64,000 nucleotides of DNA from Hyphomicrobiaceae bacterium (GCA_002919265.1 PKEY01000074.1:2943-66942); one strand, 5' to 3'. Positions 9,818 through 25,682 are shown, numbered from the stretch's first letter. Translations and numbers: made by a program. Notes: generated from the letters alone by a model not told the origin.

Positions 9818-11653
9818 ATGGGAACGGTCGCACAGGGCTGGGAAACCGATTCCCCCCATGCTGGGCGCATTCCGAGACAAGCCGGTGCGCGGTTCGGTCC
9901 ATTCTTCGTCAGATATGAAGCGTGGGTTGAGCGTGCTCTGGAGTGGGCCACGAAAAGCCCATTTCGCGCAACTTTCCTTCTGATCGTCCTTTGTCTCGCT
10001 TTGTTCAGCCCGGGAGTTTTCTCGCGGCCGCCGGTCGATCGCACGGAAGTGCGCTACGCGATAACAGCCCAGACCATGATCGAGACGGGCGACTGGTTTG
10101 TGGTTCGCGAAGGCACGCGACCCAAATTCGAGCGTCCGGTCGGCATCGTCTGGCTGCAGAGTTTGTCGGCGAAACTTTTCGGGCCTCCTGGTCTGGATGC
10201 CATTTGGGCCTACCGCATTCCGTCGCTCCTCGGAGCAATTTTGTCGGTGGTTTTCCTCTACCTTGGGAGTAGGGCTCTCGTAGGCGAAACCACGGCCTTT
10301 TTTGCATCCGTACTTCTGGCGCACTCCATATTCCTGGCAGTGGAGGCCCGGCTGGCGCTGCCGCAATCTGTGGCGCTGGCCGCGTCCGTCCTTGCACAGA
10401 CGAGCCTCGCACGCCTCTATGTGCTGCGAGAAGCACTCACGAACGCTCAGCGCCGCCGAACCGGGCTCTTGTTCTGGGGGGCAATTGGCGTTGGCGTTCT
10501 CGTCAACTCCTTGATCGTCCCTGTTGTAGCTGTCCTCACGCTTGCCGCGCTCTATGCCAAGGACCGAAATCTGTGCCTGCTGAAGGGGGCGAGCAATGTC
10601 CTTGGGCCGCTTCTGGCATTGGTGCTCGCAGCGCCGTGGGTCGCTTCAGTCGTGCTCACATCCGCTGAGGTTTCTTCGGATCGATATTCGACGCTGCGCT
10701 GGATCTCCCTGCTGATCGACTCGCAGGTGATGCATCACAAAGCCTTCTGGGGCAGCTTTTTGCTGATGGCGTGGCTCGGCATATTGCCCGCGATTTTGCT
10801 TACATTCCCCACTGCCCAGCTGATCTGGCGCGAAAGGCGCGTCCCGCTCGTCGCCTTTCTCATTGCCTGGGCCGTCCCGTATCTCGTGCTTTTCGAGCTC
10901 CTTTCGGACAAGCCGCCGCTCTACATGCTCCAGTATATCGCGCCGGCCATCGCGTTGGCGTTCGCGCTGCTTGTGACCAGGAACCCTGTCACCGGCGATC
11001 CGCCCAACATTCCGCTACCGGGGTGGACTCGCGTCGCTTGGATGTTGCTGGCGGCCTGCATGGCCCTCATTCCGATCGGCTTGCACCTCTGGGTCGGTCA
11101 GCCGGTTGGCTTCCTGATGGTGGCGGCGTCCGCGGCGATCCTCTTGCTCTTTGCAGCGACGATTTGGGCCTGGCCGCATTGCCGGCCGCTCACGTCAACT
11201 ACGTTCTCGCTGGCGGGATGCGCTGTCGCGTACTGGCTGGTGATGGCCATGCTGATGCCCGCCGAGTCGATGGTTTGGCCGAGCGTGCGGCTGGAAGAGG
11301 TAAGGGACGCCTTGCAGCCCTGCTTCCCGCAACCCGTCGCTATCGCAGGTTATTCCGAGCCGAGCGCCACGTTTCTGATGGGAGCCGACATCGTGACCGG
11401 CCGGCCTGCCGTTGTGGCGCAGCACCTCCGGGAAAATCCCCGGTCATTGGCGTTCATCACGCATGATGTCTTGCCGGATTTCGAAAAGGAATTCGAAGGG
11501 AGCAACGCCGCGCCAGCACGGGTTGCCTGCGTGCGCGGATGGAATACCTTCACGTCAAAAGGGGGCCAGTTCTCGGTATTTGCAATGGAGCCGGTCCCTG
11601 CCGAACCGACTTGTGTTGTCCCCGCTCGCTACCGGTGTGCGGCCGAAGACTAG
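9818..11653 (+). CDS. Glycosyltransferase family 39 (ArnT/PMT-like) polytopic membrane protein
   Basis: More than 10 hydrophobic segments. N-terminal loop DRTEVRYAITAQTMIETGDWFVVREGTRPKFERPVGIVWLQ resembles the ArnT/PMT_2 catalytic loop. The true start may be downstream of 9818. Confidence 0.7.
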   Translation: MGTVAQGWETDSPHAGRIPRQAGARFGPFFVRYEAWVERALEWATKSPFRATFLLIVLCLALFSPGVFSRPPVDRTEVRYAITAQTMIETGDWFVVREGTRPKFERPVGIVWLQSLSAKLFGPPGLDAIWAYRIPSLLGAILSVVFLYLGSRALVGETTAFFASVLLAHSIFLAVEARLALPQSVALAASVLAQTSLARLYVLREALTNAQRRRTGLLFWGAIGVGVLVNSLIVPVVAVLTLAALYAKDRNLCLLKGASNVLGPLLALVLAAPWVASVVLTSAEVSSDRYSTLRWISLLIDSQVMHHKAFWGSFLLMAWLGILPAILLTFPTAQLIWRERRVPLVAFLIAWAVPYLVLFELLSDKPPLYMLQYIAPAIALAFALLVTRNPVTGDPPNIPLPGWTRVAWMLLAACMALIPIGLHLWVGQPVGFLMVAASAAILLLFAATIWAWPHCRPLTSTTFSLAGCAVAYWLVMAMLMPAESMVWPSVRLEEVRDALQPCFPQPVAIAGYSEPSATFLMGADIVTGRPAVVAQHLRENPRSLAFITHDVLPDFEKEFEGSNAAPARVACVRGWNTFTSKGGQFSVFAMEPVPAEPTCVVPARYRCAAED

Positions 11654-11687
11654 TGTTTTGTCGGAAGGCGGGTGCCCGCAGTGAACG

Positions 11688-12353
11688 TCACTGCGGGGCG
11701 CCAAGCACGAGCGTCCAGAACGTCTTGAATTCCGTCTTCGGATCCTGGACCAGGGCAATGCCCATATGCCGGGCATCAGCCATGAGGAGGTTCTTGTTGT
11801 GGCTCGGGCTTGCCTTCCAGCCCTGCAAAACTTCCTCGAAGGTGGCCTGGCCCGTGCCCACGTTTTCGGCCGCGAGGCGCGGATTGTAGCCGGCGCGCTT
11901 CACGCGATCCAACGGATTGGAGCCGTCCGAACCATAGTGAGAGATACGATCAAACCGCGCGAGGTCGCGCGAGTGGGCTTTCGCGGCGGCTGTCAGCTCG
12001 GGGCTCAGCTGCAGCGGCTTGAGCCCGTGCTTTTTCCGGTACTCGTTGATCAGCTTGCGCGCATGCTCGACGTCGAGCGTCGTTTGCGAGTAATCGCGGC
12101 CGTCGAGAGCGCCCGGTTTTGGCTTCGCGTAGGAATTGCCGGGAGCGTTGTCCTGCAAAGCGGCGACGCGCTGGCCCTGTTTGTCCGATGTCCCTCGCGA
12201 TGATCCGCTCCCGCCGAAAATGCCGAGAGACGGCGTCTCCAATGAGGAGGCATTCGAGCCAGAGTCACCGAACCCAAACGAGAGAGGCACGGTGCCCAAG
12301 CTGCAGCCTGGCAGCAGCAGAGCAAAGACAATCGGAACAACCACGCGATACAT
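11688..12353 (-). CDS. CAP/SCP (YkwD-like) domain lipoprotein
   Basis: Lipobox LLPGC after the signal peptide. CAP-domain stretch INEYRKKHGLKPLQLSPELTAAAKAHSRDLA ... WKASPSHNKNLL. Confidence 0.8.
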   Translation of the reverse strand: MYRVVVPIVFALLLPGCSLGTVPLSFGFGDSGSNASSLETPSLGIFGGSGSSRGTSDKQGQRVAALQDNAPGNSYAKPKPGALDGRDYSQTTLDVEHARKLINEYRKKHGLKPLQLSPELTAAAKAHSRDLARFDRISHYGSDGSNPLDRVKRAGYNPRLAAENVGTGQATFEEVLQGWKASPSHNKNLLMADARHMGIALVQDPKTEFKTFWTLVLGAPQ

Positions 12354-12750
12354 TCGGATACTCCCGCTCCGAAGCGGACCGCTTCAGGATCTTCGAATCC
12401 GGTTAAGGCAACGTTAAGGCTAACGGCTTGTTAAGATTATCGTGATCGGGCGATTCGCTGGCGCACGCCCGGCCTGCCGCCAGCCAAGTGCAATTGGCAT
12501 CAGGAGATTGTCGGGAGTGGGGCAGCGACACGGCCGGTTGGTGGCGGAGCGCAACCGGAACACATTCCGGGCACCGCCTAATCCCCACAGCGGCCGTTTT
12601 CCACTTGGCACCAGCCTGCCGATCCTGAAAATCGAAAAAGTCCTTTGTGATTCGCGCGTCTGGCACTTGGCAGGCTCTGTTGCCGAGTGGAAAGGTGACA
12701 GTGCGACTTCGCCAGTTGAAGTCTTCAATCCGGCCGGGAGGTCGAGAAGG

Positions 12751-13914
12751 ATGAGCACAGCCGTCTTGGAAGCCCCGCGGGCCGACGCCGTCAATCCGGC
12801 ATTGGGGCTCCTGGTGTTGGCGCGTGCTGCGGCCGAGCACGGTGCAACGCAAAGCGAGATCGTCCGTGATCTGGCGCCGTATGTGGGGCACAAGCTGGCG
12901 CCGGCAGCCTGGCGGGATGCAGCTGCGAAGGCGGTTGCCTCTTTCGCCGCGCAAGGGCTGGCCAGCGTGGTGCGCAATCGCGTGGAGCTTACGGACGCAG
13001 GGCGCGACGTCGTGCAGAAGGAGCTTGGCGGCAGGCAGTTGCCTCGGGCCTGGGGGGAAATCCGCGACGTCCGGCTAATCGCTCGTGCCTTGGGCATGGA
13101 GGGCGAAGCGCTCGCGCGCCTCAAGCGTCTGGCGAAGCCGGATGGTTTGCGTGCCGCCATCCTGCAGCGAGCCTTTGGGCTGAAGATCCGGGGGGCAGCG
13201 AGCGCCGCAAGACTGCGGCAGGCGCTGGCCGTCGTTGCTCTCGAGAGGGCCTTCGGGAATACGCTCAAAGGCTCTGTGGGAACGAGAACCGGACTTTCTG
13301 CGAAGGCGGGACGGCTGCTGGCGGGTCAGCTTTCTCGCAAGCCGCGCGATTTCGGTACGGATAGCCGGCTGGTGGCAGCTCTTGCGGCAGAGCAGGTCGG
13401 CGCCTTCCAGACAGATGCCGATGCGCTGCGCACGGCCATTCTTCGCAACTTCGTCGCGCAATCGTTCGGAACTGTCTCTGAGCCAGTTTCTCGATCGGAA
13501 CTTGAAGCGCGGAGAGAAGCTCAGCGATCGGATGATCGTCAACCCGTCGAGGAGCGGGGCACGGTGGTTGCGATGCCGGGCGCTCAACGTCCGCGTCCCC
13601 TCGCAGCGAACCGTCCGAGCCTTGAAGGTTTTGCGGAAACCGTGCGAAAAGCAGCCAGCTCCTGCGCTGAAGGGTGGCCCGGCAACCGTAAGGCGTTCAT
13701 TTCGCATGTTTGGGACATCATTCGGGAGCAGCATCCCGAGTGGGGAATCACCGATATTGAGTTCAAGGCCATGTTGGCCGAAGCGCATCGCACGGGCCAC
13801 GTCGTCCTCGCCGGTGCGGATCTCAAGGACAAGAAGAACCTGAAGGCGCTGCAAGACTCTGCGGTGGCCTACAAGAATGCTGTTCTGCACTTCGTTCGTG
13901 TCGACAACGAGTGA
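12751..13914 (+). CDS. Hypothetical Ala/Arg/Leu-rich soluble protein (387 aa), the 5' partner of the twin-ATPase gene
   Basis: ATG at 12751 is preceded by GGGAGG-N-GAGAAGG. It is co-directional with the next gene across a 133-nt spacer. I recognise no catalytic motif. The track start at 12442 adds 103 unlikely residues. Confidence 0.6.
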   Translation: MSTAVLEAPRADAVNPALGLLVLARAAAEHGATQSEIVRDLAPYVGHKLAPAAWRDAAAKAVASFAAQGLASVVRNRVELTDAGRDVVQKELGGRQLPRAWGEIRDVRLIARALGMEGEALARLKRLAKPDGLRAAILQRAFGLKIRGAASAARLRQALAVVALERAFGNTLKGSVGTRTGLSAKAGRLLAGQLSRKPRDFGTDSRLVAALAAEQVGAFQTDADALRTAILRNFVAQSFGTVSEPVSRSELEARREAQRSDDRQPVEERGTVVAMPGAQRPRPLAANRPSLEGFAETVRKAASSCAEGWPGNRKAFISHVWDIIREQHPEWGITDIEFKAMLAEAHRTGHVVLAGADLKDKKNLKALQDSAVAYKNAVLHFVRVDNE

Positions 13915-14047
13915 CGTGCGGCTTCGGATCGTACGTTTTGCTAACGGCCGCAAGAGCCGTCGCGGGAGTGGCGTTGGCCGGGAATCGGCCGAGAGCCGCA
14001 CTGCGGAGTAGATACGTAGATCTGTCGCGTTTTGGGGGTTTGGGATA

Positions 14048-17000
14048 ATGCAACCGACCGCGCAAACCGCGCTTTCCGTCGACAGTCTTTCCGCGGCGTT
14101 CGAGCATTCGATCACGTGGGAGGACGATATTTGGCGTGCCGATCCTGTCGACGTGGAGCAGGTGCATGCGAAGGCGCGTCGCAAATTCTACGATCTCCTC
14201 GATGCCGTCACGTCGGGGCGCGGCTCGGGCACGCAGGCACGGATTTTGCTGTTTCACGGCCAGTCCGGTGCCGGCAAGACCCATCTCATCCGTGCGCTGA
14301 GGACAGGCTCGCATCGTCAGGGCAAGGCCTACTTCGGCTACGCCCAGATGACGCCGGACGTCTCAAACTACGCCGACTACTATCTACGGCGGATTATTGC
14401 GTCGCTCGAAAAACCTTACGATCCGGACAATGGCGGCGAGAGCGCCCTGACGCGGCTGACGAACCGGCTCGTCTCGATGGCCGACGTGCTGCCGGAAGAG
14501 GACCTGAAGGAGCTGCGCGAGGCCAATCTGGATGAAAGGGCGCTTGCCCAGCTCATCCTGAGGCTGGCTGATGAGATCATTGCGAGCCCGGCCTTTGCGG
14601 ACCAGGACCTCGACGTCAACGTGGTGCGGGCGCTGCTCTATCTGCAGCGTTGCGATCCGCGTATTGACCAGCGCGTTCGGCAATACCTGCAGGGACGTCA
14701 GCTCAACGAACTCTCTCACGCGGCAGTTGCAGCGCTCGACCCGAACAGCGGAGACGGTCGTGCCTTCGAGATCATCGAGGCGATTGGCAAGCTGATCTGG
14801 ACGGTGGAGCGCGCCGCGCTCGTTTTCTGCATCGACCAGGTTGAAGACCTGCGCTTCTTCGAGGACGCGGAAGACCGCTTCCAGAAGGCCGTCCGTGATC
14901 TCATCCAAATCGCCAATCGCGTACCAACGGCGATCATCATCATCTCGTGTCTGGAAGATTTTTACGGGCAGGTTCGCGGCGTTCTTGCCCAATCCTATAT
15001 CGACCGCATCGAGAAAGCTGGCCCTGTGGCCTTGCTCGAAACGCGCACGCCGGAAGAGGCGCGGCTCATCATCGCCAAGCGCCTCGAGCATGAGGCCTCG
15101 CTCAGGAACGGCGGCCCCACCTTCCCTGATCCTACAGCGTTCTTCGGCCCGCAGTTCTTCGAGGAGTTTGGCGGGCTTTCGACAAGGCGATTGTTGGAGC
15201 ACGCTCAGAATAGGCTGCGCGCCCAGCAGACCAATACGATGGAGGACGAGCCGGAGGTTGAAAGCCCACCGGAGAAAGCCGGCTTCATCTCAACGCTTGC
15301 GGCAGCGCTCGGCTTTGCACCCAACAACGACGAGCCGGCGGCGTCCGAAATTCCTCCGGGCATCGACTATCGCGATCTCTGGCAACGGTTTTCGCAGGCG
15401 TCCGAGGCGGAAATGCCCTCGAATGACTCCGAGCTCATGGACGTGCTCATAGCTGCCTTGGGGCTCGCGCGCGAGGAATGGGGTGAGCAGATCAAATTCC
15501 GGGTCAAGCGCCTCGAAATCGCGGACGATGTGCCTGCCTTCGACCTTTTCGTCACGCACGTTCGCGGCGGGGGTGAGCTGACGTTCGAGTCGCGGGTCTT
15601 CCTCTGCAACAGGCCGACCCAGGGCGGCGGGCTCAAGCGTCAGCTCGAGAAGGTGCTGATGAACATGGGCGGGCGCGCATCGTTCATGCTGCGCGCCAGC
15701 GATTTCCCGCCGAACCGGAAGAACCAGACGGCGCAGGCGTTTCGCAAATTCCGGGACAACGGGGGGCGCTCCCTGCTGGTGCCGATCCCGGATTGGGAGC
15801 GCATGATGATGGTGCGCGAGTTCCACGCCCATCACCGCTACGATCCAGGATTTGATCGTTGGTTCGAGCAGGCAAAGCTGCTCTCGGGCATGATCCCCAT
15901 TGTGCAACTCTTGCGGCTCGACCTTTTGGGGCCGCCTTCGGGCGTCAACGTCATTCCCGTTGGCAGCGGAATGATTCGGCCACGGACGCAACCGACAGAA
16001 ATGTTTCGTGGCCAAACGGACGCGGCTGCATCCTCACACTCATCCGTGCCGGAAGTTCAGCCCTCGGAAGAGCGCGAAACAGCTGGCTCTGCGGCGCAGG
16101 CTGATCCTGTTCCAGTCGATCCGCCAATCGTCGAAAAGCCGTCGCGCTGGGCGTGGGCGGACTGGATCGGTTGGGGCTCGTCCTCTCGCACGGAGCCACT
16201 GCCCGCCAACGACGATCCGCTGCCGATGTCCGTCCTTCTGGACGAGGGCGGCGATGATGAGGACAGCATCCTGGCCGGGCGGGAAAACGGCACGAACCGT
16301 CTGGTCAGACTTAATCGCGATGTGCTGAAGCGCCACGCGGCGGTGCTCGGCGGCTCAGGATCGGGTAAGACGACGCTGGCCCTCAGCATTATCGAGCAGC
16401 TGCTGTTGCGCGGCATCCCGGCGGTGCTGATCGACCGCAAGGGCGATCTCTGCAGCTACGCCAACCCGGAGGTCTGGCGCGCCCACGAACACGAGTTCGA
16501 CGAGCGCCGTGCCGCCGAACGCCGGCGGCTTGCCGAAGCAATCGACGTCGCGGTGTACACGCCGGGACGCGCGTCTGGCCGTCCGATCTCGATCACGCTT
16601 CTGCCGAACGGCATCAGCGAGCTGCCGGAGCATGAGCAGCAACTGCTCGCCAATCTCTCGGCGGCTGCGCTGGGCGACATGCTGCACCTCAAGAATTCGG
16701 CGACACACCAGAAGCAGTCCGGCACGCTATCAGTGGCGCTCAAGATCCTTGGCAGCCGTTCGCGCACGGAAGTCACGCTCAACGACCTGATCTATCTGCT
16801 GGAGAACGAGGATCCGGAGCTGACCGACCTGACGCAGCGGATGGACCCCTCCGGCAAGATCCGGCGGGATCTGGTCGCACAGCTCGACAGCTTGCGGCAC
16901 CGCAATTCAGCCTTGTTTGACGCTGGCGGCGAAAGCCTCCGCATGGAGGCGTTGCTCGGCATCGGGCCCTATGCCCAGCCCGGTCGCACGCGCCTCTCGA

Positions 17001-17551
17001 TCATCTACACGGGCTTCTTGGGCGACAACGAGAACATTCTCTTCTGGGTCGCGCAATTCCTGTCGGAGGCTTTGCGGTTCTGCCAGCGAAACCCGAATGA
17101 CGAGCTTCAAGCCGTCGTCATGTTCGACGAGGCGGACCTTTACATCCCGGCCAATTCCAAGCCGGCAACCGCCGAGCCGCTGCAGAGTTTGCTGAAGCGC
17201 GCCCGTTCGGCCGGCCTGGGCCTGATGCTCGCGACGCAATCGCCGGGTGACCTCGATTACAAGAGCCGTGATCAGATCACGTCGTGGTTCATTGGCCGCG
17301 TGCGCGAGGATACGGCGCTGCGCAAACTCAAGGCTGCCTTCCAGAGCGAGAGTGGTCTGGATCCTGCCGCCGTGCTGCCCGGCCAGACGGTCGGTGAGTT
17401 CCATCTGGTGCAGGAGGGGTTGGTCCGGTCCATCAAGGCGCAGCGCTCGCTCATCAGCGCCGAGCAGGTGCCGTTCGATCGGATCGAGCAGTTGGCCCGC
17501 GAGACGAAGGGGCAGGAGACGAAGCAGCTGCCGCTCTTTGGCTTGCGGTAG
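14048..17551 (+). CDS. 1167-aa twin P-loop NTPase: an N-terminal AAA/ORC-STAND-like module fused to a C-terminal HerA/FtsK-class ATPase module
   Basis: Module 1: Walker A GQSGAGKT (14258..14281) with LVFCIDQVED as Walker B candidate. Module 2: Walker A GGSGSGKT (16349..16372) behind a HerA-type lead-in VRLNRDVLKRHAAVLGG, Walker B VVMFDEAD (17114..17137), and LMLATQSPGDLD. A Pro/Ser/Glu/Asp-rich linker spans about aa 645-740. Confidence 0.8.
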   Translation: MQPTAQTALSVDSLSAAFEHSITWEDDIWRADPVDVEQVHAKARRKFYDLLDAVTSGRGSGTQARILLFHGQSGAGKTHLIRALRTGSHRQGKAYFGYAQMTPDVSNYADYYLRRIIASLEKPYDPDNGGESALTRLTNRLVSMADVLPEEDLKELREANLDERALAQLILRLADEIIASPAFADQDLDVNVVRALLYLQRCDPRIDQRVRQYLQGRQLNELSHAAVAALDPNSGDGRAFEIIEAIGKLIWTVERAALVFCIDQVEDLRFFEDAEDRFQKAVRDLIQIANRVPTAIIIISCLEDFYGQVRGVLAQSYIDRIEKAGPVALLETRTPEEARLIIAKRLEHEASLRNGGPTFPDPTAFFGPQFFEEFGGLSTRRLLEHAQNRLRAQQTNTMEDEPEVESPPEKAGFISTLAAALGFAPNNDEPAASEIPPGIDYRDLWQRFSQASEAEMPSNDSELMDVLIAALGLAREEWGEQIKFRVKRLEIADDVPAFDLFVTHVRGGGELTFESRVFLCNRPTQGGGLKRQLEKVLMNMGGRASFMLRASDFPPNRKNQTAQAFRKFRDNGGRSLLVPIPDWERMMMVREFHAHHRYDPGFDRWFEQAKLLSGMIPIVQLLRLDLLGPPSGVNVIPVGSGMIRPRTQPTEMFRGQTDAAASSHSSVPEVQPSEERETAGSAAQADPVPVDPPIVEKPSRWAWADWIGWGSSSRTEPLPANDDPLPMSVLLDEGGDDEDSILAGRENGTNRLVRLNRDVLKRHAAVLGGSGSGKTTLALSIIEQLLLRGIPAVLIDRKGDLCSYANPEVWRAHEHEFDERRAAERRRLAEAIDVAVYTPGRASGRPISITLLPNGISELPEHEQQLLANLSAAALGDMLHLKNSATHQKQSGTLSVALKILGSRSRTEVTLNDLIYLLENEDPELTDLTQRMDPSGKIRRDLVAQLDSLRHRNSALFDAGGESLRMEALLGIGPYAQPGRTRLSIIYTGFLGDNENILFWVAQFLSEALRFCQRNPNDELQAVVMFDEADLYIPANSKPATAEPLQSLLKRARSAGLGLMLATQSPGDLDYKSRDQITSWFIGRVREDTALRKLKAAFQSESGLDPAAVLPGQTVGEFHLVQEGLVRSIKAQRSLISAEQVPFDRIEQLARETKGQETKQLPLFGLR

Positions 17552-17593
17552 CTGCGCTCGTCCTGAGCCCCTAAAATCCGGGTGCTGATGTTT

Positions 17594-17619
17594 GCGTTGT
17601 GGTGGGCGCGCCACAGCGC
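17594..17619 (+). terminator. Stem-loop 43 nt after the twin-ATPase stop (no U-tract)
   Basis: GCGTTGTGG / CCACAGCGC form 9 bp including one G-U pair, with an 8-nt loop. It is followed by AAATTCG, so it is not a canonical intrinsic terminator. Confidence 0.3.
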
Positions 17620-17951
17620 AAATTCGTCGCACCACGAGACCTTGCTTGCGCGACGCGGTCCCTAATTCGGCGTGTGTCAGGACATGCCGAATGCAAACGA
17701 TTTTTTAAGTGTCCGGAATTTATTATGAATCCACGCCTTCTCCCGTGGAGATTGCGAGTGGACGCGCGTTTGCAGGGAATTGCGTTTCCTCCCTGATGGC
17801 GAATGCAATTTTTAGCTGCAGCGCCTCTTTTTTAGATGTATTCTGAAACCTGCCGTTCCGGAAAGGGGGCCGGTGCGGCCAGTGGCCAGTGGTACACAGC
17901 TCGGTGCCAGGGGGAGTCGGGTATCGAGCGGCGTTTGTGCGGGGTAGTGTC

Positions 17952-18044
17952 ATGACGGCTAAGCCGTTGATTGTGATGTTGCTTGCCACGTTGCTCGGTC
18001 CGGCGATCGGCGTGGGGCTGTTCTTCTTGATGCATACTCTCTAA
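17952..18044 (+). CDS. Possible 30-codon hydrophobic small ORF (MTAKPLIVMLLATLLGPAIGVGLFFLMHTL)
   Basis: Read by eye; it falls below the ORF-track size cutoff. It has a single TM-like segment and a weak RBS (GGGGTAG). It lies in a 630-nt gap upstream of moeA. Confidence 0.2.
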   Translation: MTAKPLIVMLLATLLGPAIGVGLFFLMHTL

Positions 18045-18179
18045 TCGTTTTAGCGTTTGGAACCTGTAGCGGGCACTTTCGGCCGGTGGCGAGATGTTGC
18101 CGCCGATTGTTGGCAGCGTTATTCCATCCAAGGTGAAGCCGCCTAACTCGAATTCAGCCGACCGGCCGCGGCGGATGGA

Positions 18180-19466
18180 ATGACCGGAAAAATCCTCAAC
18201 GACTGCTTCCAGCCTTTTGAGCAGCGTATGCGCCATGCGGAGGCTATTGCGCTGCTTCGCTCCCGTATCGCGCCGATCGCTTCCGTCGAGCAGGTGCCGC
18301 TTGAGCAGGCGCTCGGGCGCATTATTGCGGAGCCTATTGTATCGCCGCGCCCCGTACCTGCGCACACGAATGCTGCCGTCGACGGGTATGCTTTCGCCCA
18401 CGAAAGCTATGATCGTGCCAGTGGCACCACCTTTGTGATCGCCGCACGGGCTGCGGCCGGCCACCCGGTCGGCGAGCCGCCTGCGGGAACGGCGGTGCGC
18501 ATCTTCACCGGTGCCGTGATGCCGGCTGGCTTCGATACCGTCGCGATGCAGGAGGACTGCGAGGTCCTGCCAGCGGAGGCGGGTGCAAAAGTCAGAGTGC
18601 GTATCCCCGGTGGGCTAAAGCAGGGTGCCAACGTTCGGCTTGCTGGCGAGGACGTTGCGGTTGGCGAGACGCTGTTCACGCCCGGGCACATTCTCCGGCC
18701 TCAGGATCTTGCCGCGCTCACCTCTATCGGCCTCGACAAGGTGAGCTGCTTCGCGCCGCTCCGGCTCGCCATCGTTTCAACGGGGGACGAGATCGTCCGT
18801 CCGGGCGCGGGTGAGTTGGGGCCAGGGCAGGTTTTCGATGCCAACGCGCCAATGCTGGTCGGGCTCAGCAAGCTCGCTGGCTGTATCACGGAAGATCTTG
18901 GGATTTGGCCAGACGATGCCGCGGAAGTGCGACGTCGGCTGGCGGAGGCAGCGCAATCCTTCGACGTCGTCCTGACCTCCGGCGGCGCGAGCCGCGGCGA
19001 GGAAGATCACATGGGGGCGGCGCTGGCAGCGCTGGGCACGCGCCATTTCTGGTCGCTCGCCATCAAGCCCGGCCGTCCCATGATGTTCGGGCAGATCGGG
19101 AAAAGCATCGTCGTCGGCCTGCCCGGCAACCCCGTGGCCGTGTTCGTCTGCTTCCTGATGTACGTTTGGCCTATGCTGCGTCGCCTATCGGGTGCGGTCT
19201 GGCCGGAGCCGCGGCGGCTTCCCATGAAGGCTGCCTTTGACTTCCCGAACCGCAAGACCGGACGGCGCGAATTTTGGCGCGGCTTCTTTGTCGAAACTCC
19301 GGAGGGCCTGGCCGTCGACAAATTCAAGCGAGACGGCTCCGGGTTAATCACCGGGCTCAGGCAAGCCGACGGTATTATCGATATCCCGGAGGACGTTGCC
19401 GAGGTGAAACGCGGCGATACGGTGGCCTTCATCCCCTTCACCGAGTTCGGTATTCTCAACCGGTGA
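18180..19466 (+). CDS. moeA: Molybdopterin molybdotransferase MoeA
   Basis: 428 aa. Typical MoeA stretches: VPAHTNAAVDGYAF, RIFTGAVMPAGFDTV, VSTGDEIV, DVVLTSGGASRGEEDH, LAIKPGRPMMFG, GLPGNPVA. Confidence 0.9.
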   Translation: MTGKILNDCFQPFEQRMRHAEAIALLRSRIAPIASVEQVPLEQALGRIIAEPIVSPRPVPAHTNAAVDGYAFAHESYDRASGTTFVIAARAAAGHPVGEPPAGTAVRIFTGAVMPAGFDTVAMQEDCEVLPAEAGAKVRVRIPGGLKQGANVRLAGEDVAVGETLFTPGHILRPQDLAALTSIGLDKVSCFAPLRLAIVSTGDEIVRPGAGELGPGQVFDANAPMLVGLSKLAGCITEDLGIWPDDAAEVRRRLAEAAQSFDVVLTSGGASRGEEDHMGAALAALGTRHFWSLAIKPGRPMMFGQIGKSIVVGLPGNPVAVFVCFLMYVWPMLRRLSGAVWPEPRRLPMKAAFDFPNRKTGRREFWRGFFVETPEGLAVDKFKRDGSGLITGLRQADGIIDIPEDVAEVKRGDTVAFIPFTEFGILNR

Positions 19467-19641
19467 TTGATGACGCCGCAGTGACGTTACTGCGGCAAAC
19501 GTGTGCACCGAGCTAATTCTGATCCACAGGTGAACCACACAATCATCAATCATTAACCGCGATCCTTCTTTAATCGAGGGACAGTCAGCACGTAATCGGC
19601 AGTCCGCTGGCCCTCCGGTGCACGCCAAAAGAGGATCGTCC

Positions 19642-20259
19642 ATGTCTCGCCCATCCGCTCCTCAATTCACATTTGTCAGACGTGAAGAGAAGGAATTCAG
19701 GATCAGAGAACTCGTGGTCCGCCACCTGCAGCGACAGGCTGCGGATAGCTTCCAGGGTGTCGGCGAAAAGACATGCTTGATGATCGCTCGCTCCGCCGAC
19801 AGTCCGATGGCGAAGACGGTGCTATCGCTCGGCGCCTCCGGCGCCCTGAGGGGTTATTCCGTGCGCGCGATTTTCGGCTTCCTTGGTACGGCCGAAACCG
19901 TGAAGATCGCGGAGGCTTGCCGGGCTTCCGCCTGGTCGCTGCAAGTGCGCTGGGCACGTGATTTGCGGCTCCTCGAAGCCCACGAGCAGCTTGTTTTGGG
20001 CACGGAGACGAGCTGGTACGGCGACAGCATGCGCCGGGATCCGTCGATTCGTGATGCCTGCGAGCTGTACGCGCCCGAATGCCCGGTGACGGCCCGCCGT
20101 TCAATCCAGTTCTTCGAGAATTTATGGCGCGCTTCCGAGCCGGTTTTCGAGCGCACGCTCGTGCCGACGAACGAGCTGCCGGACCCGGCGCTCATCCCTT
20201 CAATTACCGAGCTTTCTTCGCGGTTTTCCGCGAAGTGCAGGGTCCGGACATCCGCATGA
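19642..20259 (+). CDS. Hypothetical protein (205 aa from the ATG at 19642)
   Basis: ATG lies 7 nt after AAGAGGA. No motif recognised. Codon composition looks native. Confidence 0.5.
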   Translation: MSRPSAPQFTFVRREEKEFRIRELVVRHLQRQAADSFQGVGEKTCLMIARSADSPMAKTVLSLGASGALRGYSVRAIFGFLGTAETVKIAEACRASAWSLQVRWARDLRLLEAHEQLVLGTETSWYGDSMRRDPSIRDACELYAPECPVTARRSIQFFENLWRASEPVFERTLVPTNELPDPALIPSITELSSRFSAKCRVRTSA

Positions 20260-20417: not shown

Positions 20418-23400
20418 TTGAGGTGTGCCATGTTCGGATGCCTGCGCCTTGCCTTCGCAGCACTCGTCCTCCTCGCTCTCCTGCCTTCCAGCTCATTCGC
20501 TCAAACTTTTTTTGCGCACGCGGGCATTGCTCGCGAAGCCGAGCGCCTGGAGGCGAGCCTTGCCGCCTTGTCACCGAGGCGTCCTGCAGCTGATCTTATG
20601 AATGCCGGGCGCGCGGCTTTGACCACGCAGAACGACCCGAGGACGGCAACGCGGGCCTTCAAGGCAGCAGCGGCAAGAGACGGGCAGAATGCGGAAGCTT
20701 GGCTCCTGCTTGCGCGGTCGCTGCTCGATACGACGCCTGATCCCAACCGTCCGGCTGAGCGGTATGAGTTGCCGGCGCAGGCCAGCGCAGCGGCCTATCT
20801 GGCCTATCAGCGCTCCACCGACAACACCTTGAAAGCGCGTGCGCTTTCCATTCTCGGAGAGGCCCTGGAACGCCGATCTTTCTGGCGTCCGGCAATCGAG
20901 GCCCTGAAAACCAGCCTCGCCCTCGTCGAAGACACATCCGTACGCGAACGCTACGAGAGGTTACGCAGCGAGTACGGTTTCCGCATCCTCGATTACACGG
21001 TCGAACAGGATTCCTCGGTTCCTCGGGCTTGCGTGCAGTTCTCTGAACCGTTGGCGCGCGGCCAGGACCTGACGCAGTTCGTTGCCGTTGACGGCAAGGA
21101 TGCACAAGCGTTGGTCATCGAAAACCAGCAGCTCTGCATTGAAGGTCTCTCCCACGGCAAGAATTACAACCTGCTCATCCGTGCCGGTTTGCCATCCACC
21201 GTCGGAGAGACATTGGAGAAGCCGGCTGAACTTGCCGTCTACGTGCGCGACCGCACACCATCCGTGCGGTTCGTCGGCCGCAGTTACGTTCTGCCGAGCC
21301 GCGGGCAGTCCGGAATTCCTGTCGTTTCGGTCAACACCGAGAAGATCGCGATTGAAATTTTCCGCATTGGCGATCGCAGTTTGGCCCAAACCATAAACAG
21401 CGGCGATCTCCAACGTCAGCTCTGGCCCTATGAAGTCGAGCAAATGCGCCAGACGACGGCGGCGCGCGTCTATGCTGGCGAGCTGGCGGCGAAAATGCGC
21501 CTCAATGAAGAGGTCACCACCGCCATTCCCATCGGCGAGGCGGTGCCGGAGCTGAAGCCCGGTGTGTACGCGATGATCGCGTCGCCCGCGGAAAAGCTGA
21601 ACGACTACAGCGCCTACGCGACGCAATGGTTCATCGTCTCGGACATCGGGCTTGCCACGTTCACGGGTGAGGATGGCGTTCACGTCTTCGCCCGTTCGCT
21701 CGCGACGACGCAGCCGCTTGCGGACGTCACCGTCAAGCTCGTCGCGCGAAACAACGAGGTTCTCGGCGAGGCGCGGACCGATGCAAGCGGCTACGCTCAC
21801 TTCGAGGCCGGTCTGGCGCGTGGCGAAGGCGGCATGGCGCCGGCGCTGGTTTCGGCCGAAAGGGAGACCGATTTCGCCTTCCTGGATCTGACGGCCGCTT
21901 CGTTCGATCTCTCCGATCGCGGTGTGAAGGGTCGGGAATCACCAGGCCCGATCGATGGCTTCCTTTTCACGGAGCGGGGTGTCTACAAGCCCGGTGAGAC
22001 AGTCCACCTGACGGCACTCATCCGCGATCGAGACGCCAAGGCGATGTCGGTTCCGGCCACCTTGATCGTCAGCCGGCCGGATGGCGTCGAGCATACCCGC
22101 ATTGCTCTGACCAATGGTGAGCTGGGCGGCCATACCACGTCACTGCCGCTCGCCACATCGGCCATGACTGGGACGTGGCGCGCCAGGCTTCATACCGACC
22201 CCAAGGCCGATCCGCTCGCGACCGTGGCTTTCCTTGTCGAGGACTTCGTCCCCGAGCGAATGGATCTCGAAATCGAGCCGGGTGCAAAAGCTCTGGCCCC
22301 AGAGGAGACGGCTACCGTGAAGGTCGCCGGTCGGTACCTCTATGGTGCGCCGGCCGCGAACCTAGCCATCGAAGGCGACATCGTCGTCAAGCCGGCAAAG
22401 GATGGCTTGCCCGGTTGGGCGGGCTATTACTTCGGGCTTGCCGACGAGTCCGTGGAGCCCGTCCGTTCCCCGATTGAAAACCTTCCCACCACCGATGCCG
22501 AAGGCCGGGCCGAGCTTAGCGTCGTGCTGCCGCCTATTCCGCGCACGGGCCGTCCACTGGAGGCCGACCTTCTTCTGCGCCTGCGCGAACCCGGCGGCCG
22601 GACGATTGAACGGATCGCAACGCTGCCCGTGGACCTACGCGGCCCGCGGATTGGCCTCAAGCCGATGTTCCGGGACCTGCAGCTCAGCGAGGACAGCACA
22701 GCCGATTTCGAACTCGTCTATCTCGATGCGAATGGCCAGCGGGCATCATTGCTAGGCGCAAAGTGGGAGCTCGTGCGCCTGGAGCAGCGCTGGCAGTGGT
22801 ACAGCCGCGACGGCTACTGGACTTACGAGCCCTTTACGCTCACGCGGAAGGTGGCGAGCGGGACGGTCGACATCGGAGCGGATGCGCCGGCCCGCGTCGC
22901 CGTGAATGTCGAGTGGGGCCGCTATCGGCTGGAAGTAACGAGCCCGGAGCAAGGTGGTCCGGTTTCCAGTGTCGTCTTCTCAGCGGGATGGTATGCCGAT
23001 CGGGACGCCGACAGTCCCGAGATGCTGGAGGTCGCGCTCGACAAGCCGACCTACAACGCGGGCGAGGTGGCCAAGCTCAAGATTGTTGATCGGCTAGGCG
23101 GCCGGGCGCTCGTTGCGGTCCTGCGCGAAGGTTTGCTCACCAGCCAGGAGGTCGAGTTGCCGGCCGGCGGTGGGGAAGTCGCGATCCCTGTCAAGGAAAC
23201 ATGGGGGCCCGGCGCCTATGTGGCTGCCATGCTGTATCGTCCGATGGACGAGCGTGCGAAACGAATGCCGAGCCGGGCGATTGGGCTCAAATGGCTGCCC
23301 ATCGACCAGAGCGCGCGCACGCTGAAGGTCGCAGTGGAAGCTCCGGAGCAGGTTCGCTCGGGTACGCTGTTGACGGTGCCAGTCCAGCTCGATGGCCTCG

Positions 23401-25682
23401 CCGCAGGTGAGGAAGCGCGGGTGACGGTTGCCGCTGTCGACCTCGGCATCCTGAACCTTACGCGGTTCGCGCCGCCGGCGCTCGAGGAGTGGTTTTACGG
23501 TCAGCGCCGGCTTGGGGCTGAGCTGCGCGATTTCTATGGCCGGCTGATCGACGGTATGCGCGCGGAACGGGGCCCCCTCAGGTCTGGCGGCGATGCCGAC
23601 GCCGGCCTGTCCATGCAAGGCAGCCCGCAGAATGAAGCCACTCTTGCGCTGTTCTCCGGCATTGTTCGTGTTGGCGCGGATGGGCGTGCCGTCGTCGAAT
23701 TCGAGCTGCCGGACTTCAATGGCACCGTCCGGCTGATGGCAGTCGCCTGGAGCGGCGACAAGGTCGGGCATGGCTCGGCCGACATCATCATTCGCGATCC
23801 GGTGGCCGTGCTGGCCTCGGCCCCTAGGTTCCTGACGCTTGGCGATGAGACCCGGCTCGAGATCGATCTGCACAACGTCGAGGGCGTGACGGGAACTCTC
23901 AATTTGACGGTGGAGCAGGAGGGTCCGTCCGGGGAGCAGTTATCGGTCCATCAACGCGACCTGACGCTCGCTCCCAACGAACGCAGGGCTGAGCGCATCA
24001 CGATCAAGCCGGATCGGATAGGACGGTTTGCGTATCACATCGCCGTCACCGGTCCCGGCGATCTCGATGTGCGCAGGCGGGTGAGTTTCGAGGTGAAGCC
24101 GCCGGCGACCGACATCCGCCGCGTCACAGTGAGCGAGCTTGCACCGGGCGGCACAATTACGCTCGGGCCGGCGCTTCTGACGGACCTTATCGCGGAAACC
24201 GCGCGGGTTTCGGTCAGCGTAGGGCCGGCTGCCCGCCTAGACGTGCCGGGACTGCTGACACAACTCGATCGCTACCCGTACGGCTGCGCCGAGCAGGTGA
24301 CGAGCCGTGCACTGCCGCTGCTCTACGCCAACGAGCTTGCGGTCAGCGCGGGCCTGCCGCGTGACGCCGAGCTCAGGGAGCGGATCGAGAAGGCGATTGC
24401 CCGCGTGTTCGAGATGCAGGACGCCTCCGGCGCCTTCGGCGCCTGGGGCCCGTTCAGCAGCGGTGACATGTGGCTCACGAGCTATGTTACCGAGTTTCTG
24501 ACCCGCGCCCGCGAACAAGGCTTTGCGGTCAAGCCCGAGGTGTTCTCGCTCGCGCTGGACCGGCTGCAGAACTTCATCAGCTATGCGCAGGATTTCGAAC
24601 GGGGCGGTGAAGCGCAGGCTTATGCGCTCTACGTTCTGGCCCGCAATGGGCGTGCTCCGATCGGAGAGGTTCGCTACTACGCGGACACGCGTCTCGATCG
24701 GTTCGCGACGCCGCTTGCGAAAGCACACCTTGCGGCGGCGCTTGCCATGCTGGGGGACAAGGAGCGCGCCGAGGCAGTGTTCCGCCGGGCGATCGCTTCC
24801 GCGAGCGAGCCCGACAATCCTACGCGCAATGATTACGGCTCAACGCTGAGGGACCAGGCCGCCTTGGTGACGCTCGCTTCAGAAACGAGGACGGCGCAGG
24901 ACCTCGTGCGGCAGCTCGCCGTCAGTCTGCCACCGGCCTATGAGTCGCGTTCGCATACGTCGACCCAGGAGCAGTCCTGGCTGCTGCTCGCCGCGCGGGC
25001 GCTGATGGATCAGGCGCGCGGGACGACGCTAACCGTGAATGGTGCTTCCCATAAGGGCACCTACAACTTGTCTCTGACGGATGCGGATCTCCGGGCAGGC
25101 GATGTCGTCATCCGAAACGATGGCGACGGGCCTGTCGATGCCGTCATCTCCGTCCTCGGAGCCTCTACAACTGCGGAACCGCCGATCGAACGCAACCTGA
25201 AGGTCGAACGTGCGTTCTACACGCTCGAGGGCCAGCCGGTTGCGTTCGACAGCGCCACTGGGGGCACTGGCCAGCTTCAGCAGACGGACCGTCTCGTTGT
25301 CGTGCTCAAGGTTGAGGCGTCCATTGGCGGTCGGCTGTTGTTGGTGGACCGGTTGCCTGCGGGCCTCGAAATCGAAAACCCACGGCTCGTCGAGAGCGGC
25401 GATCTGAGGAATTTCTCGTGGCTGAATACGACCATTCGTCCGGAGCATACGGAGTTCAGGGACGATCGGTTCGTAGCGGCGTTCGACCTGACCGAGAAGG
25501 AAGGTGAAGGTGATGAGAGCGCCCGGAAGGCGGGGTCGAAGACCATGACTGTGGCGTACGTCGTGCGCGCGGTGACGCCGGGCACTTACGTGCATCCGGC
25601 TGCAACAGTTGAGGACATGTACCAGCCCGAGCGGTTCGCACGCACGGCGCAGGGCAAACTGGTGGTTTTGGCAAAACAGTGA
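20418..25682 (+). CDS. yfhM: Bacterial alpha-2-macroglobulin family protein (1754 aa) with a thioester motif
   Basis: Signal peptide ...LLPSSSFA/QT. Thioester-type motif YPYGCAEQ (CAEQ at 24285..24296). Size and the immediately downstream pbpC match the known A2M-PBP1C operon. Confidence 0.9.
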   Translation: MRCAMFGCLRLAFAALVLLALLPSSSFAQTFFAHAGIAREAERLEASLAALSPRRPAADLMNAGRAALTTQNDPRTATRAFKAAAARDGQNAEAWLLLARSLLDTTPDPNRPAERYELPAQASAAAYLAYQRSTDNTLKARALSILGEALERRSFWRPAIEALKTSLALVEDTSVRERYERLRSEYGFRILDYTVEQDSSVPRACVQFSEPLARGQDLTQFVAVDGKDAQALVIENQQLCIEGLSHGKNYNLLIRAGLPSTVGETLEKPAELAVYVRDRTPSVRFVGRSYVLPSRGQSGIPVVSVNTEKIAIEIFRIGDRSLAQTINSGDLQRQLWPYEVEQMRQTTAARVYAGELAAKMRLNEEVTTAIPIGEAVPELKPGVYAMIASPAEKLNDYSAYATQWFIVSDIGLATFTGEDGVHVFARSLATTQPLADVTVKLVARNNEVLGEARTDASGYAHFEAGLARGEGGMAPALVSAERETDFAFLDLTAASFDLSDRGVKGRESPGPIDGFLFTERGVYKPGETVHLTALIRDRDAKAMSVPATLIVSRPDGVEHTRIALTNGELGGHTTSLPLATSAMTGTWRARLHTDPKADPLATVAFLVEDFVPERMDLEIEPGAKALAPEETATVKVAGRYLYGAPAANLAIEGDIVVKPAKDGLPGWAGYYFGLADESVEPVRSPIENLPTTDAEGRAELSVVLPPIPRTGRPLEADLLLRLREPGGRTIERIATLPVDLRGPRIGLKPMFRDLQLSEDSTADFELVYLDANGQRASLLGAKWELVRLEQRWQWYSRDGYWTYEPFTLTRKVASGTVDIGADAPARVAVNVEWGRYRLEVTSPEQGGPVSSVVFSAGWYADRDADSPEMLEVALDKPTYNAGEVAKLKIVDRLGGRALVAVLREGLLTSQEVELPAGGGEVAIPVKETWGPGAYVAAMLYRPMDERAKRMPSRAIGLKWLPIDQSARTLKVAVEAPEQVRSGTLLTVPVQLDGLAAGEEARVTVAAVDLGILNLTRFAPPALEEWFYGQRRLGAELRDFYGRLIDGMRAERGPLRSGGDADAGLSMQGSPQNEATLALFSGIVRVGADGRAVVEFELPDFNGTVRLMAVAWSGDKVGHGSADIIIRDPVAVLASAPRFLTLGDETRLEIDLHNVEGVTGTLNLTVEQEGPSGEQLSVHQRDLTLAPNERRAERITIKPDRIGRFAYHIAVTGPGDLDVRRRVSFEVKPPATDIRRVTVSELAPGGTITLGPALLTDLIAETARVSVSVGPAARLDVPGLLTQLDRYPYGCAEQVTSRALPLLYANELAVSAGLPRDAELRERIEKAIARVFEMQDASGAFGAWGPFSSGDMWLTSYVTEFLTRAREQGFAVKPEVFSLALDRLQNFISYAQDFERGGEAQAYALYVLARNGRAPIGEVRYYADTRLDRFATPLAKAHLAAALAMLGDKERAEAVFRRAIASASEPDNPTRNDYGSTLRDQAALVTLASETRTAQDLVRQLAVSLPPAYESRSHTSTQEQSWLLLAARALMDQARGTTLTVNGASHKGTYNLSLTDADLRAGDVVIRNDGDGPVDAVISVLGASTTAEPPIERNLKVERAFYTLEGQPVAFDSATGGTGQLQQTDRLVVVLKVEASIGGRLLLVDRLPAGLEIENPRLVESGDLRNFSWLNTTIRPEHTEFRDDRFVAAFDLTEKEGEGDESARKAGSKTMTVAYVVRAVTPGTYVHPAATVEDMYQPERFARTAQGKLVVLAKQ

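Follow-up and report, generated by a model that had tools for sequence, protein, structure and literature searches.

A window of 64,000 nt from a Hyphomicrobiaceae bacterium (GCA_002919265.1, PKEY01000074.1:2943-66942) was analysed, and the term window is used here for this whole stretch of DNA. We focused on a pair of co-directional open reading frames (ORFs), which encode a small partner protein and a large protein with two ATPase modules (Table 1). Both ORFs were present as described in a first-pass annotation of the window. That annotation had also noted no convincing terminator in the spacer between the two genes and a hairpin after the second gene, and both observations held. A consensus scan of the spacer gave no terminator-like site, and its folding relative to shuffled sequences was only moderate (z = −2.25). 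The hairpin after the large gene was strong. The region 17552-17660 (109 nt) gave dG = −51.5 kcal/mol and z = −3.5 against shuffles, and the hairpin had no clear U-tract. An Rfam search of positions 11600-18300 returned no match, and the consensus scan of the locus for terminators and promoters was otherwise uninformative. For the small gene, an alternative, longer GTG start was present at 12442. The ATG at 12751 was preferred because the homologues (approximately 366-415 aa) align from this position.

The spacer exceeds that of tightly coupled operons, which would fit two unrelated neighbouring ORFs, or a small ORF that is not a genuine gene. Several results were against this explanation. In all 75 Hyphomicrobiaceae loci that could be tested, the small gene was the immediate 5' neighbour of the large gene, in line with the operon-like pairing that had been proposed. 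Distant-type loci with enough upstream DNA also carried the small gene 5', except locus L166, for which a small gene was not detected. Adjacency and order were invariant in all but this one of more than 100 loci with enough upstream DNA, in two phyla-level groups. The identities of the small and large proteins co-varied (rho = 0.61, n = 64). In two distant relatives, L085 and L087, the genes overlapped by 4 nt, which suggested translational coupling in those relatives. In addition, the small protein had more than 1400 homologue clusters and a high-confidence predicted fold. Because the synteny was conserved, unrelated neighbours were excluded, and this explanation is now barely credible. The two genes are a real two-gene operon and one inherited unit.

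The small protein had been described as a soluble partner without readable features. This description was replaced by that of a protein with two winged-helix domains, which were revealed by an AlphaFold2 (AF2) model with a predicted local distance difference test score (pLDDT) of 88.8. The model showed an N-terminal winged helix of three helices and a beta-hairpin (residues 16-91), a helical domain (101-239), a disordered and variable linker (240-290) and a very conserved C-terminal winged-helix-like domain (291-384). The protein gave no match in Pfam, PADLOC, NCBIfam, PHROGs or PDB sequences, either as a single sequence or as a profile, and no Pfam domain was present in any of its homologue clusters. 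There was also no detectable similarity to DndG, SspB or DUF4007. Foldseek searches of the model against PDB and BFVD gave nothing under E = 0.001, and the weak matches were generic winged helix-turn-helix (wHTH) regulators. The MukF/JetA kleisins were among the top matches (E = 0.09-1.2, template-modelling (TM) score below 0.2). The partner ATPase of the small protein is not of the SMC type, and a kleisin-like adaptor, as read from this model, is taken as a lead only.

In the case of the large protein, the first reading was a twin P-loop architecture with a HerA/FtsK-class C-terminal half. It was borne out by Pfam profiles above curated cut-offs and by the conservation of the motifs. In the N-terminal module, AAA_22 (45.8 bits), AAA_16 (43.6 bits) and nSTAND1 (33.3 bits) matched residues 46-345, and all of them passed their curated cut-offs. 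Residues 346-424 were assigned to the AAA+ lid by position. The BrxD models of PADLOC and NCBIfam aligned to residues 47-313 with scores far under their cut-offs. When the N-terminal 430 residues were searched against PDB as a profile, with the Orc/Cdc6 clade as the target, only P-loop-level matches were obtained. In the C-terminal module, residues 750-1077 matched DUF87 (44.8 bits, cut-off 23.2) and HerA_C (37.9 bits, cut-off 22). In PADLOC, the matches of this half were mad8 (E = 2.3e-21, residues 755-1124), HerA and the C-terminus of DndH (E = 1e-6), and no PADLOC model spanned the whole large protein or the partner. The sequence matches of the HerA-like half in PDB were the HerA chains 8wiv and 4d2i and YjgR. 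Profile searches of the large protein detected neither a transmembrane anchor nor an FtsK gamma domain.

All of the motifs quoted at first were located at the residues given for them, namely GQSGAGKT (K77), CIDQVED (D263, E266), GGSGSGKT (K774) and VVMFDEAD (D1027, E1028). The ATQSPGDLDY block corresponded to residues 1062-1071. In the AAA+ module, Walker A was G71-T78, Walker B was D263-Q-V-E266, and R320 was conserved. In the HerA/FtsK module, Walker A was G768-T776 and Walker B was D1027-E1028, followed by Q1064-SPGDLDY and R1074. K77, D263, E266, K774, D1027 and E1028 showed no or almost no variation among 120 close and 112 distant members of the family, and this level of conservation in 232 proteins was far beyond chance. 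The QSPGDLDY block and R1074 were as conserved as the Walker residues in the same proteins. At the level of the motifs, both ATP sites of the large protein were intact. Family membership and the conserved R1074 suggested that the C-terminal module may form a hexameric ring and translocate DNA. Within the Hyphomicrobiaceae branch, the mean identity was 88.8% for the HerA/FtsK module, 77.7% for the AAA+ core, 67% for the domain that follows it and 29% for the linker.

This domain between the two ATPase modules modified another early claim, that there was no recognisable effector. The claim stood for separate genes, as no separate effector gene was found. It did not stand for the large protein itself, in which residues about 460-580 are predicted to have a restriction endonuclease (REase) fold. 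An AF2 model of residues 425-665 was built from an alignment drawn from both family branches. It had a pLDDT of 88 and the topology a-a-b-b-b-a-b-a-b-a, followed by short helices. The best Foldseek matches in PDB were two PD-(D/E)xK enzymes, MspJI (E = 7.9e-4, probability 1.0) and AspBHI (E = 1e-3), with probabilities of 0.99-1.0, and Avs3 stood lower in the list. The candidate site P496/D499/(D/E)514/R516 of this domain corresponds to window positions 15533-15595. D499 is located on strand 2 and (D/E)514-x-R516 on strand 3. In the close branch, P496 was fixed, together with D499 (117/120), D/E514 (119/120) and R516 (120/120). The 112 distant proteins were variable at these positions and had a hydrophobic residue at 516. 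The putative catalytic positions were not conserved family-wide, and the residues conserved throughout the family were C520-N521 and Q525-G-G-G-L. In sequence, D499/(D/E)514/R516 recalls the PD...(D/E)xK site with Arg replacing Lys.

The linker that follows carried two motifs of its own. A Trp-rich motif, WAWADWIGWG, was located at residues 701-710 (window 16148-16177), and an acidic motif, PANDDPLPMSVLLDE, at residues 718-732 (window 16199-16243), with the pattern PANDDxLPLSVILDE. By strict pattern, the Trp-rich motif was found in 69 and the acidic motif in 87 of the 120 close members. Both were found in none of the 112 distant members.

Relatives of the pair were collected to place it. A word-indexed search gave at least 962 clusters at 90% identity for the large protein and at least 1490 for the small protein. 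In an exhaustive search, 598 large-protein representatives (50% identity) reached E ≤ 1e-30. A scan with one genome per species gave at least 426 relatives, of which the best 80 were used. These came from 80 different genomes. The labels Hyphomicrobiaceae, Hyphomicrobium and Filomicrobium covered most of these, and the remainder carried only the labels Alphaproteobacteria, Pseudomonadota or Proteobacteria. The window's own protein cluster was named 'Hyphomicrobiaceae bacterium'. The pair was present in the cultured H. facile DSM 1565, H. sulfonivorans S1 and Hyphomicrobium sp. CS1GBMeth3. The distant full-length relatives had 33-43% identity, and the named ones belonged to Archangium, Corallococcus, Citreicoccus and Kofleriaceae (Myxococcota).

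The distant relatives usually had a three-gene operon, in the order REase gene, small gene and large gene (examples L083-L086). The first gene encodes 410-445 aa with a C-terminal DUF559/REase_MTES_1575 endonuclease domain, and the second encodes 330-355 aa. The middle protein was homologous to the small protein of the window (E = 4e-22 at full length, 9e-10 for the C-terminal domain). Among 80 further loci sampled from metagenomes, the endonuclease gene was found in 23 of the distant type, or 27 with the four genome examples. Approximately 8 distant-type loci with enough upstream DNA had no endonuclease gene. No homologue of the DUF559 protein was found in the 64-kb window, and the 82 genome loci and 30 window-type metagenome loci gave none either. 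The early observation that no stand-alone nuclease or NADase lies at the locus agreed with this, as no REase homologue was found in the 64-kb window. The window-type branch was monophyletic and uniformly nuclease-less in a tree of the large protein built by neighbour joining. Nuclease-less loci elsewhere in the tree were scattered among nuclease-bearing loci. The Hyphomicrobiaceae branch lost its endonuclease gene in a single event. The Arg-for-Lys triad of the large protein was fixed in exactly this branch, which has no separate endonuclease.

Some further features of the distant relatives were recorded. The endonuclease genes are located at L083:5757-6983, L084:5658-6941, L085:5648-6943 and L086:4831-6165. 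The N-terminal region of these proteins (approximately 300 aa) opens with a Walker-A-like stretch without Lys, for example TLSVLAGPLGSGA and TVSVLSGPAGHS, and may be an inactive P-loop domain ahead of DUF559. The distant large proteins P0266, P0283, P0301, P0333, P0343 and P0375 (1240-1370 aa) have an extra N-terminus of approximately 200 aa with no Pfam match, as recorded also at L086:7193-7813. At L088:11356-19285, the pair is followed by genes for an NPHP3_N-WD40 STAND NTPase, an EAD1-trypsin protein and a SAVED-domain protein, a conflict-system neighbourhood. At L085, RES-domain and integrase genes were present nearby.

Based on this architecture, the pair could be placed, which the first-pass annotation had not been able to do for any family. 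It matches the Orc/CDC6 + iREase + wHTH + HerA/FtsK + REase 'capture systems', a comparative-genomic prediction (Nucleic Acids Res 2024, PMC10853773; revisited in PMC12839542), and its relatives have an upstream DUF559 gene. In the mechanism proposed for the class, helix-turn-helix and Orc/Cdc6 components place the apparatus on invader DNA, HerA/FtsK pumps the DNA and the REase cuts it, and the class was predicted to be defensive (PMC10853773). The supplementary text of that paper has no mention of Hyphomicrobium, Corallococcus or Archangium. The window pair shares with these systems an AAA+ ATPase that is Orc/Cdc6-STAND-like by general profiles, a REase-fold domain after the AAA+ core in the position of the iREase, a HerA/FtsK module, here fused in the same polypeptide, and a separate winged-helix protein. 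In addition, its relatives have an active-looking DUF559 REase gene in the operon. It differs from them in four respects. The window branch has no REase effector gene in the neighbourhood, and the pair stands in a fixed CAP / pair / (MoeA) context rather than a mobile one. Fast evolution is not seen in its winged-helix partner. Finally, the branch has its own motifs and a linked micro-ORF. These results suggested that the window pair is very probably a nuclease-less branch of the capture systems. The branch is a new nuclease-less variant of a computationally predicted class and is apparently neofunctionalised. It is not categorically new.

The pair was also compared with other systems that use related ATPases. 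It shares the DUF87/HerA_C signature in its C-terminal P-loop module with HerA-NurA, SIR2-HerA and DUF4297-HerA (PDB 8wiv, 4d2i, 8xau). It differs from these in that no NurA, SIR2 or DUF4297 partner flanks it and that a second ATPase is fused. No HAS-barrel was detected by profile in the large protein, and for HerA proper, the NCBIfam models HerA_antiphage (28.9 bits) and HerA_Thermprot (16.1 bits) stayed far from their cut-offs of 800. The Orc/Cdc6-type AAA+ protein BrxD of type 2 BREX aligned with residues 47-313, that is, over most of the ATPase, and some large-protein homologues matched Pfam BrxC_BrxD. BREX membership was rejected, with BrxD at 27.8 bits against a cut-off of 350 and no BREX component among the neighbours scanned. 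The nearest neighbours checked were the CAP gene, the glycosyltransferase, MoeA and alpha-2-macroglobulin. DndH of DndFGH and mad8 of MADS share the HerA/FtsK-type ATPase. Membership in MADS or DndFGH was rejected, as only the ATPase module matched, no dnd or mad gene was among the neighbours scanned and the partner had no PADLOC match. The MADS preprint does not describe mad8. FtsK/SpoIIIE, TraD, TrwB and VirD4 belong to the same ring-translocase P-loop class and gave weak Pfam and NCBIfam matches at the Walker A lead-in, but all of these matches were under cut-off. Because only single modules matched, and under the family cut-offs, the pair was not assigned to BREX, MADS, DndFGH or a HerA-nuclease pair.

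The pair is predicted to encode an ATP-driven machine that handles double-stranded DNA. The winged-helix partner and the AAA+/REase-fold half would recognise DNA or load the complex onto DNA. The C-terminal HerA/FtsK module would assemble into a ring and pump double-stranded DNA using ATP. In the Hyphomicrobiaceae branch, the machine would act without cutting DNA in cis and would serve a conserved host function. After the loss of the endonuclease, the pair kept a fixed chromosomal place, evolved slowly and gained the branch motifs and the downstream membrane micro-ORF. We favour, with moderate confidence, a conserved, nuclease-independent host function of the nuclease-less pair through DNA binding and translocation, rather than a mobile restriction-like defence island.

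The pair could still be an anti-plasmid or anti-phage capture system that is fixed in the family. Its motor would reel in foreign DNA, and the internal REase-fold domain or a nuclease in trans would cut it. Its closest relatives carry a dedicated DUF559 endonuclease. One relative (L088) lies in a conflict-gene neighbourhood, and another (L085) lies near RES and integrase genes. The class as a whole was predicted to be defensive, and the HerA-like half matches PADLOC mad8, HerA and DndH. P496, D499, D/E514 and R516 are fixed in exactly the branch that lost the nuclease. The canonical catalytic Lys is replaced by Arg in this site, however, the triad is not family-wide, and no PADLOC model covers the large protein or the partner in full.

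Conservation and mobility weighed against such a defence system. The CAP-domain lipoprotein gene was divergent upstream of the pair in 54 loci, and also in L001 and L002, and moeA was located downstream in approximately 30 loci. The mean identity to the window across loci was 69% for the large protein, 62% for MoeA, 60% for CAP and 47% for the small protein. The identities of the large protein and MoeA were correlated (rho = 0.64, n = 23). A tblastn search against 72,556 plasmids found no full-length copy, and a scan of 2.9 million viral contigs in IMG/VR gave one partial match, to the HerA half. Three observations made at the outset were repeated here. No tRNA was found in the 64-kb window, the GC content was native-looking and flat across the locus, and the neighbours were ordinary chromosomal genes by domain scan. 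This pattern of identity, synteny and mobility indicated vertical inheritance under strong purifying selection, unlike that of a mobile and fast-evolving defence island. The caveat of the first-pass annotation, that the module could be lineage-conserved and non-mobile, was thereby upheld by the fixed synteny, the lack of full-length plasmid copies and the identities that track MoeA. Its hypothesis of a mobile anti-phage system was weakened by the strict synteny, the vertical-looking descent, the lack of a full-length copy among the 72,556 plasmids, the single partial match in the viral contigs and the conservation above MoeA. Capture of foreign DNA as the present function has no mobility signature on its side, in plasmids, viral contigs, location or identities. 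Conservation above a housekeeping neighbour is also the opposite of what is typical of arms-race genes. We regard this explanation as rather unlikely. Across the budding Hyphomicrobiaceae, the pair is apparently conserved like a core gene, judged from 80 genome hits, the best of at least 426. The motor and the adaptor were kept under very strong purifying selection without the nuclease, apparently over the whole history of the family, and therefore the motor would be useful without cutting DNA in cis.

Several points weigh against a nuclease-independent host function. Vertical inheritance is compatible with defence, because some defence systems are core genes in certain clades. The large protein may have nuclease activity of its own, because the D499/(D/E)514/R516 triad resembles an active site. 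A nuclease could also act in trans, as the search covered approximately 8 kb on each side of the loci and the 64-kb window. The Foldseek support for the REase fold was marginal (E of about 1e-3, TM of about 0.3), although consistent, and came from one model. The Orc/Cdc6 placement of the N-terminal ATPase is based on general Pfam models and sub-threshold BrxD matches, with PDB matches at the P-loop level only. The view of conservation within the family comes from 80 genome hits, the best of at least 426. Finally, our literature search gave no experiments on the Orc/Cdc6 + HerA/FtsK capture class.

Table 1. Features of the two-gene locus and its surroundings (window coordinates).
Feature	Position	Strand	Details or evidence
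CAP/SCP-domain lipoprotein gene	11688..12353	-	Pfam CAP 2.9e-24; signal peptide, LPGC lipobox
Small partner gene, 387 aa	12751..13914	+	ORF, homologue clusters, AF2 model
Intergenic spacer, 133 nt	13915..14047	+	G-rich Shine-Dalgarno-like stretch ahead of ATG 14048
Large gene, 1167 aa, nuclease-fold domain flanked by two ATPase modules	14048..17551	+	
Orc/Cdc6-STAND-like AAA+ core and lid, residues 46-424	14183..15319	+	Pfam, motif invariance
Predicted restriction-endonuclease (PD-(D/E)xK-like) fold and three short helices, residues 425-645	15320..15982	+	AF2, Foldseek
Linker, poorly conserved, presumably disordered, residues 646-745, ~100 aa	15983..16282	+	
HerA/FtsK-type P-loop translocase module, residues 746-1167	16283..17551	+	Pfam, PADLOC, PDB
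Hairpin, 14-bp stem, GGCG loop	17591..17622	+	Starts 40 nt past the stop codon of the large gene
Micro-ORF, 30 aa, MTAKPLIVMLLATLLGPAIGVGLFFLMHTL, one hydrophobic helix, uncalled	17952..18044	+	tblastn, codon pattern

In 72 Hyphomicrobiaceae-type loci, tblastn (E ≤ 1e-4) gave a match to the 30-aa micro-ORF downstream of the pair and on the same strand, usually 200-540 nt past the large gene. In the window, the strong hairpin and approximately 330 nt lie between the end of the large gene and the start of the micro-ORF. The micro-ORF was kept whichever gene came next (moeA, NUDIX or a penicillin-binding protein) and was absent from all distant-type loci searched by tblastn. The entropies at the three codon positions were 1.12, 0.45 and 1.62, which indicated that it is protein-coding. 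It had no Pfam or NCBIfam family and was not annotated as a gene in two public assemblies. It is a possible third component of the module.

On the other side, the CAP gene is syntenic with the pair and yet probably not a functional part of it. It holds the side where the relatives have the endonuclease gene, and the outer flanks vary. The other neighbours in the window included genes for a glycosyltransferase, MoeA, an alpha-2-macroglobulin/PBP1C pair, a prolyl oligopeptidase, an ABC transporter and RNase D. The pair at 20418-27802 (+) encodes an alpha-2-macroglobulin of 1754 aa followed by a PBP1C-type penicillin-binding protein, a pairing that has already been described. An ORF of 213 aa after moeA, at 19618-20259 (+), had no Pfam domain, and weakly similar ORFs were seen again in several Hyphomicrobium loci, 6-7 kb past the pair. 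At 35915-37786 (+), an NhaA Na+/H+ antiporter carries an N-terminal DsbA/thioredoxin-like domain.

The branch-specific features would also fit a domesticated DNA pump suited to the Hyphomicrobiaceae life style. In this case, a membrane-associated HerA/FtsK motor, its Orc/Cdc6-like loader and a winged-helix adaptor would help to pass or clear chromosomal DNA into the bud along the narrow hypha, or would do so at the bud septum. We know of no machinery that passes the chromosome through the hypha into the bud in stalked budding bacteria. The Trp-rich linker motif and the linked 30-aa transmembrane micro-ORF would be consistent with membrane association, and the pair shows core-like conservation. 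The loci that gave the nuclease-less branch carried the labels Hyphomicrobiaceae, Hyphomicrobium or Filomicrobium, or else broader ones only. This evidence is purely circumstantial. Membrane association is read from the sequence, these genomes would be expected to have a canonical FtsK too, and the distribution of the branch is taken from 80 genome hits, the best of at least 426. Such a pump is improbable on the present evidence. Equally doubtful is the history that would go with it, in which a defence-type capture machine lost its nuclease at the Hyphomicrobiaceae root and was re-used as a membrane-associated chromosomal pump of a twin ATPase, a winged-helix adaptor and a 30-aa transmembrane peptide.

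The nuclease-free branch is a natural experiment that bears on the mechanism of the class, that is, on capture, exclusion or translocation versus restriction. It is also a possible example of a conflict system domesticated for a host function. As no experimental study of the class was found, any tractable member would be informative, and the cultured Hyphomicrobium species that carry the pair make genetic work feasible. If the pair were to act as a pump into the bud, it would bear on how budding bacteria move DNA through the hypha or stalk.

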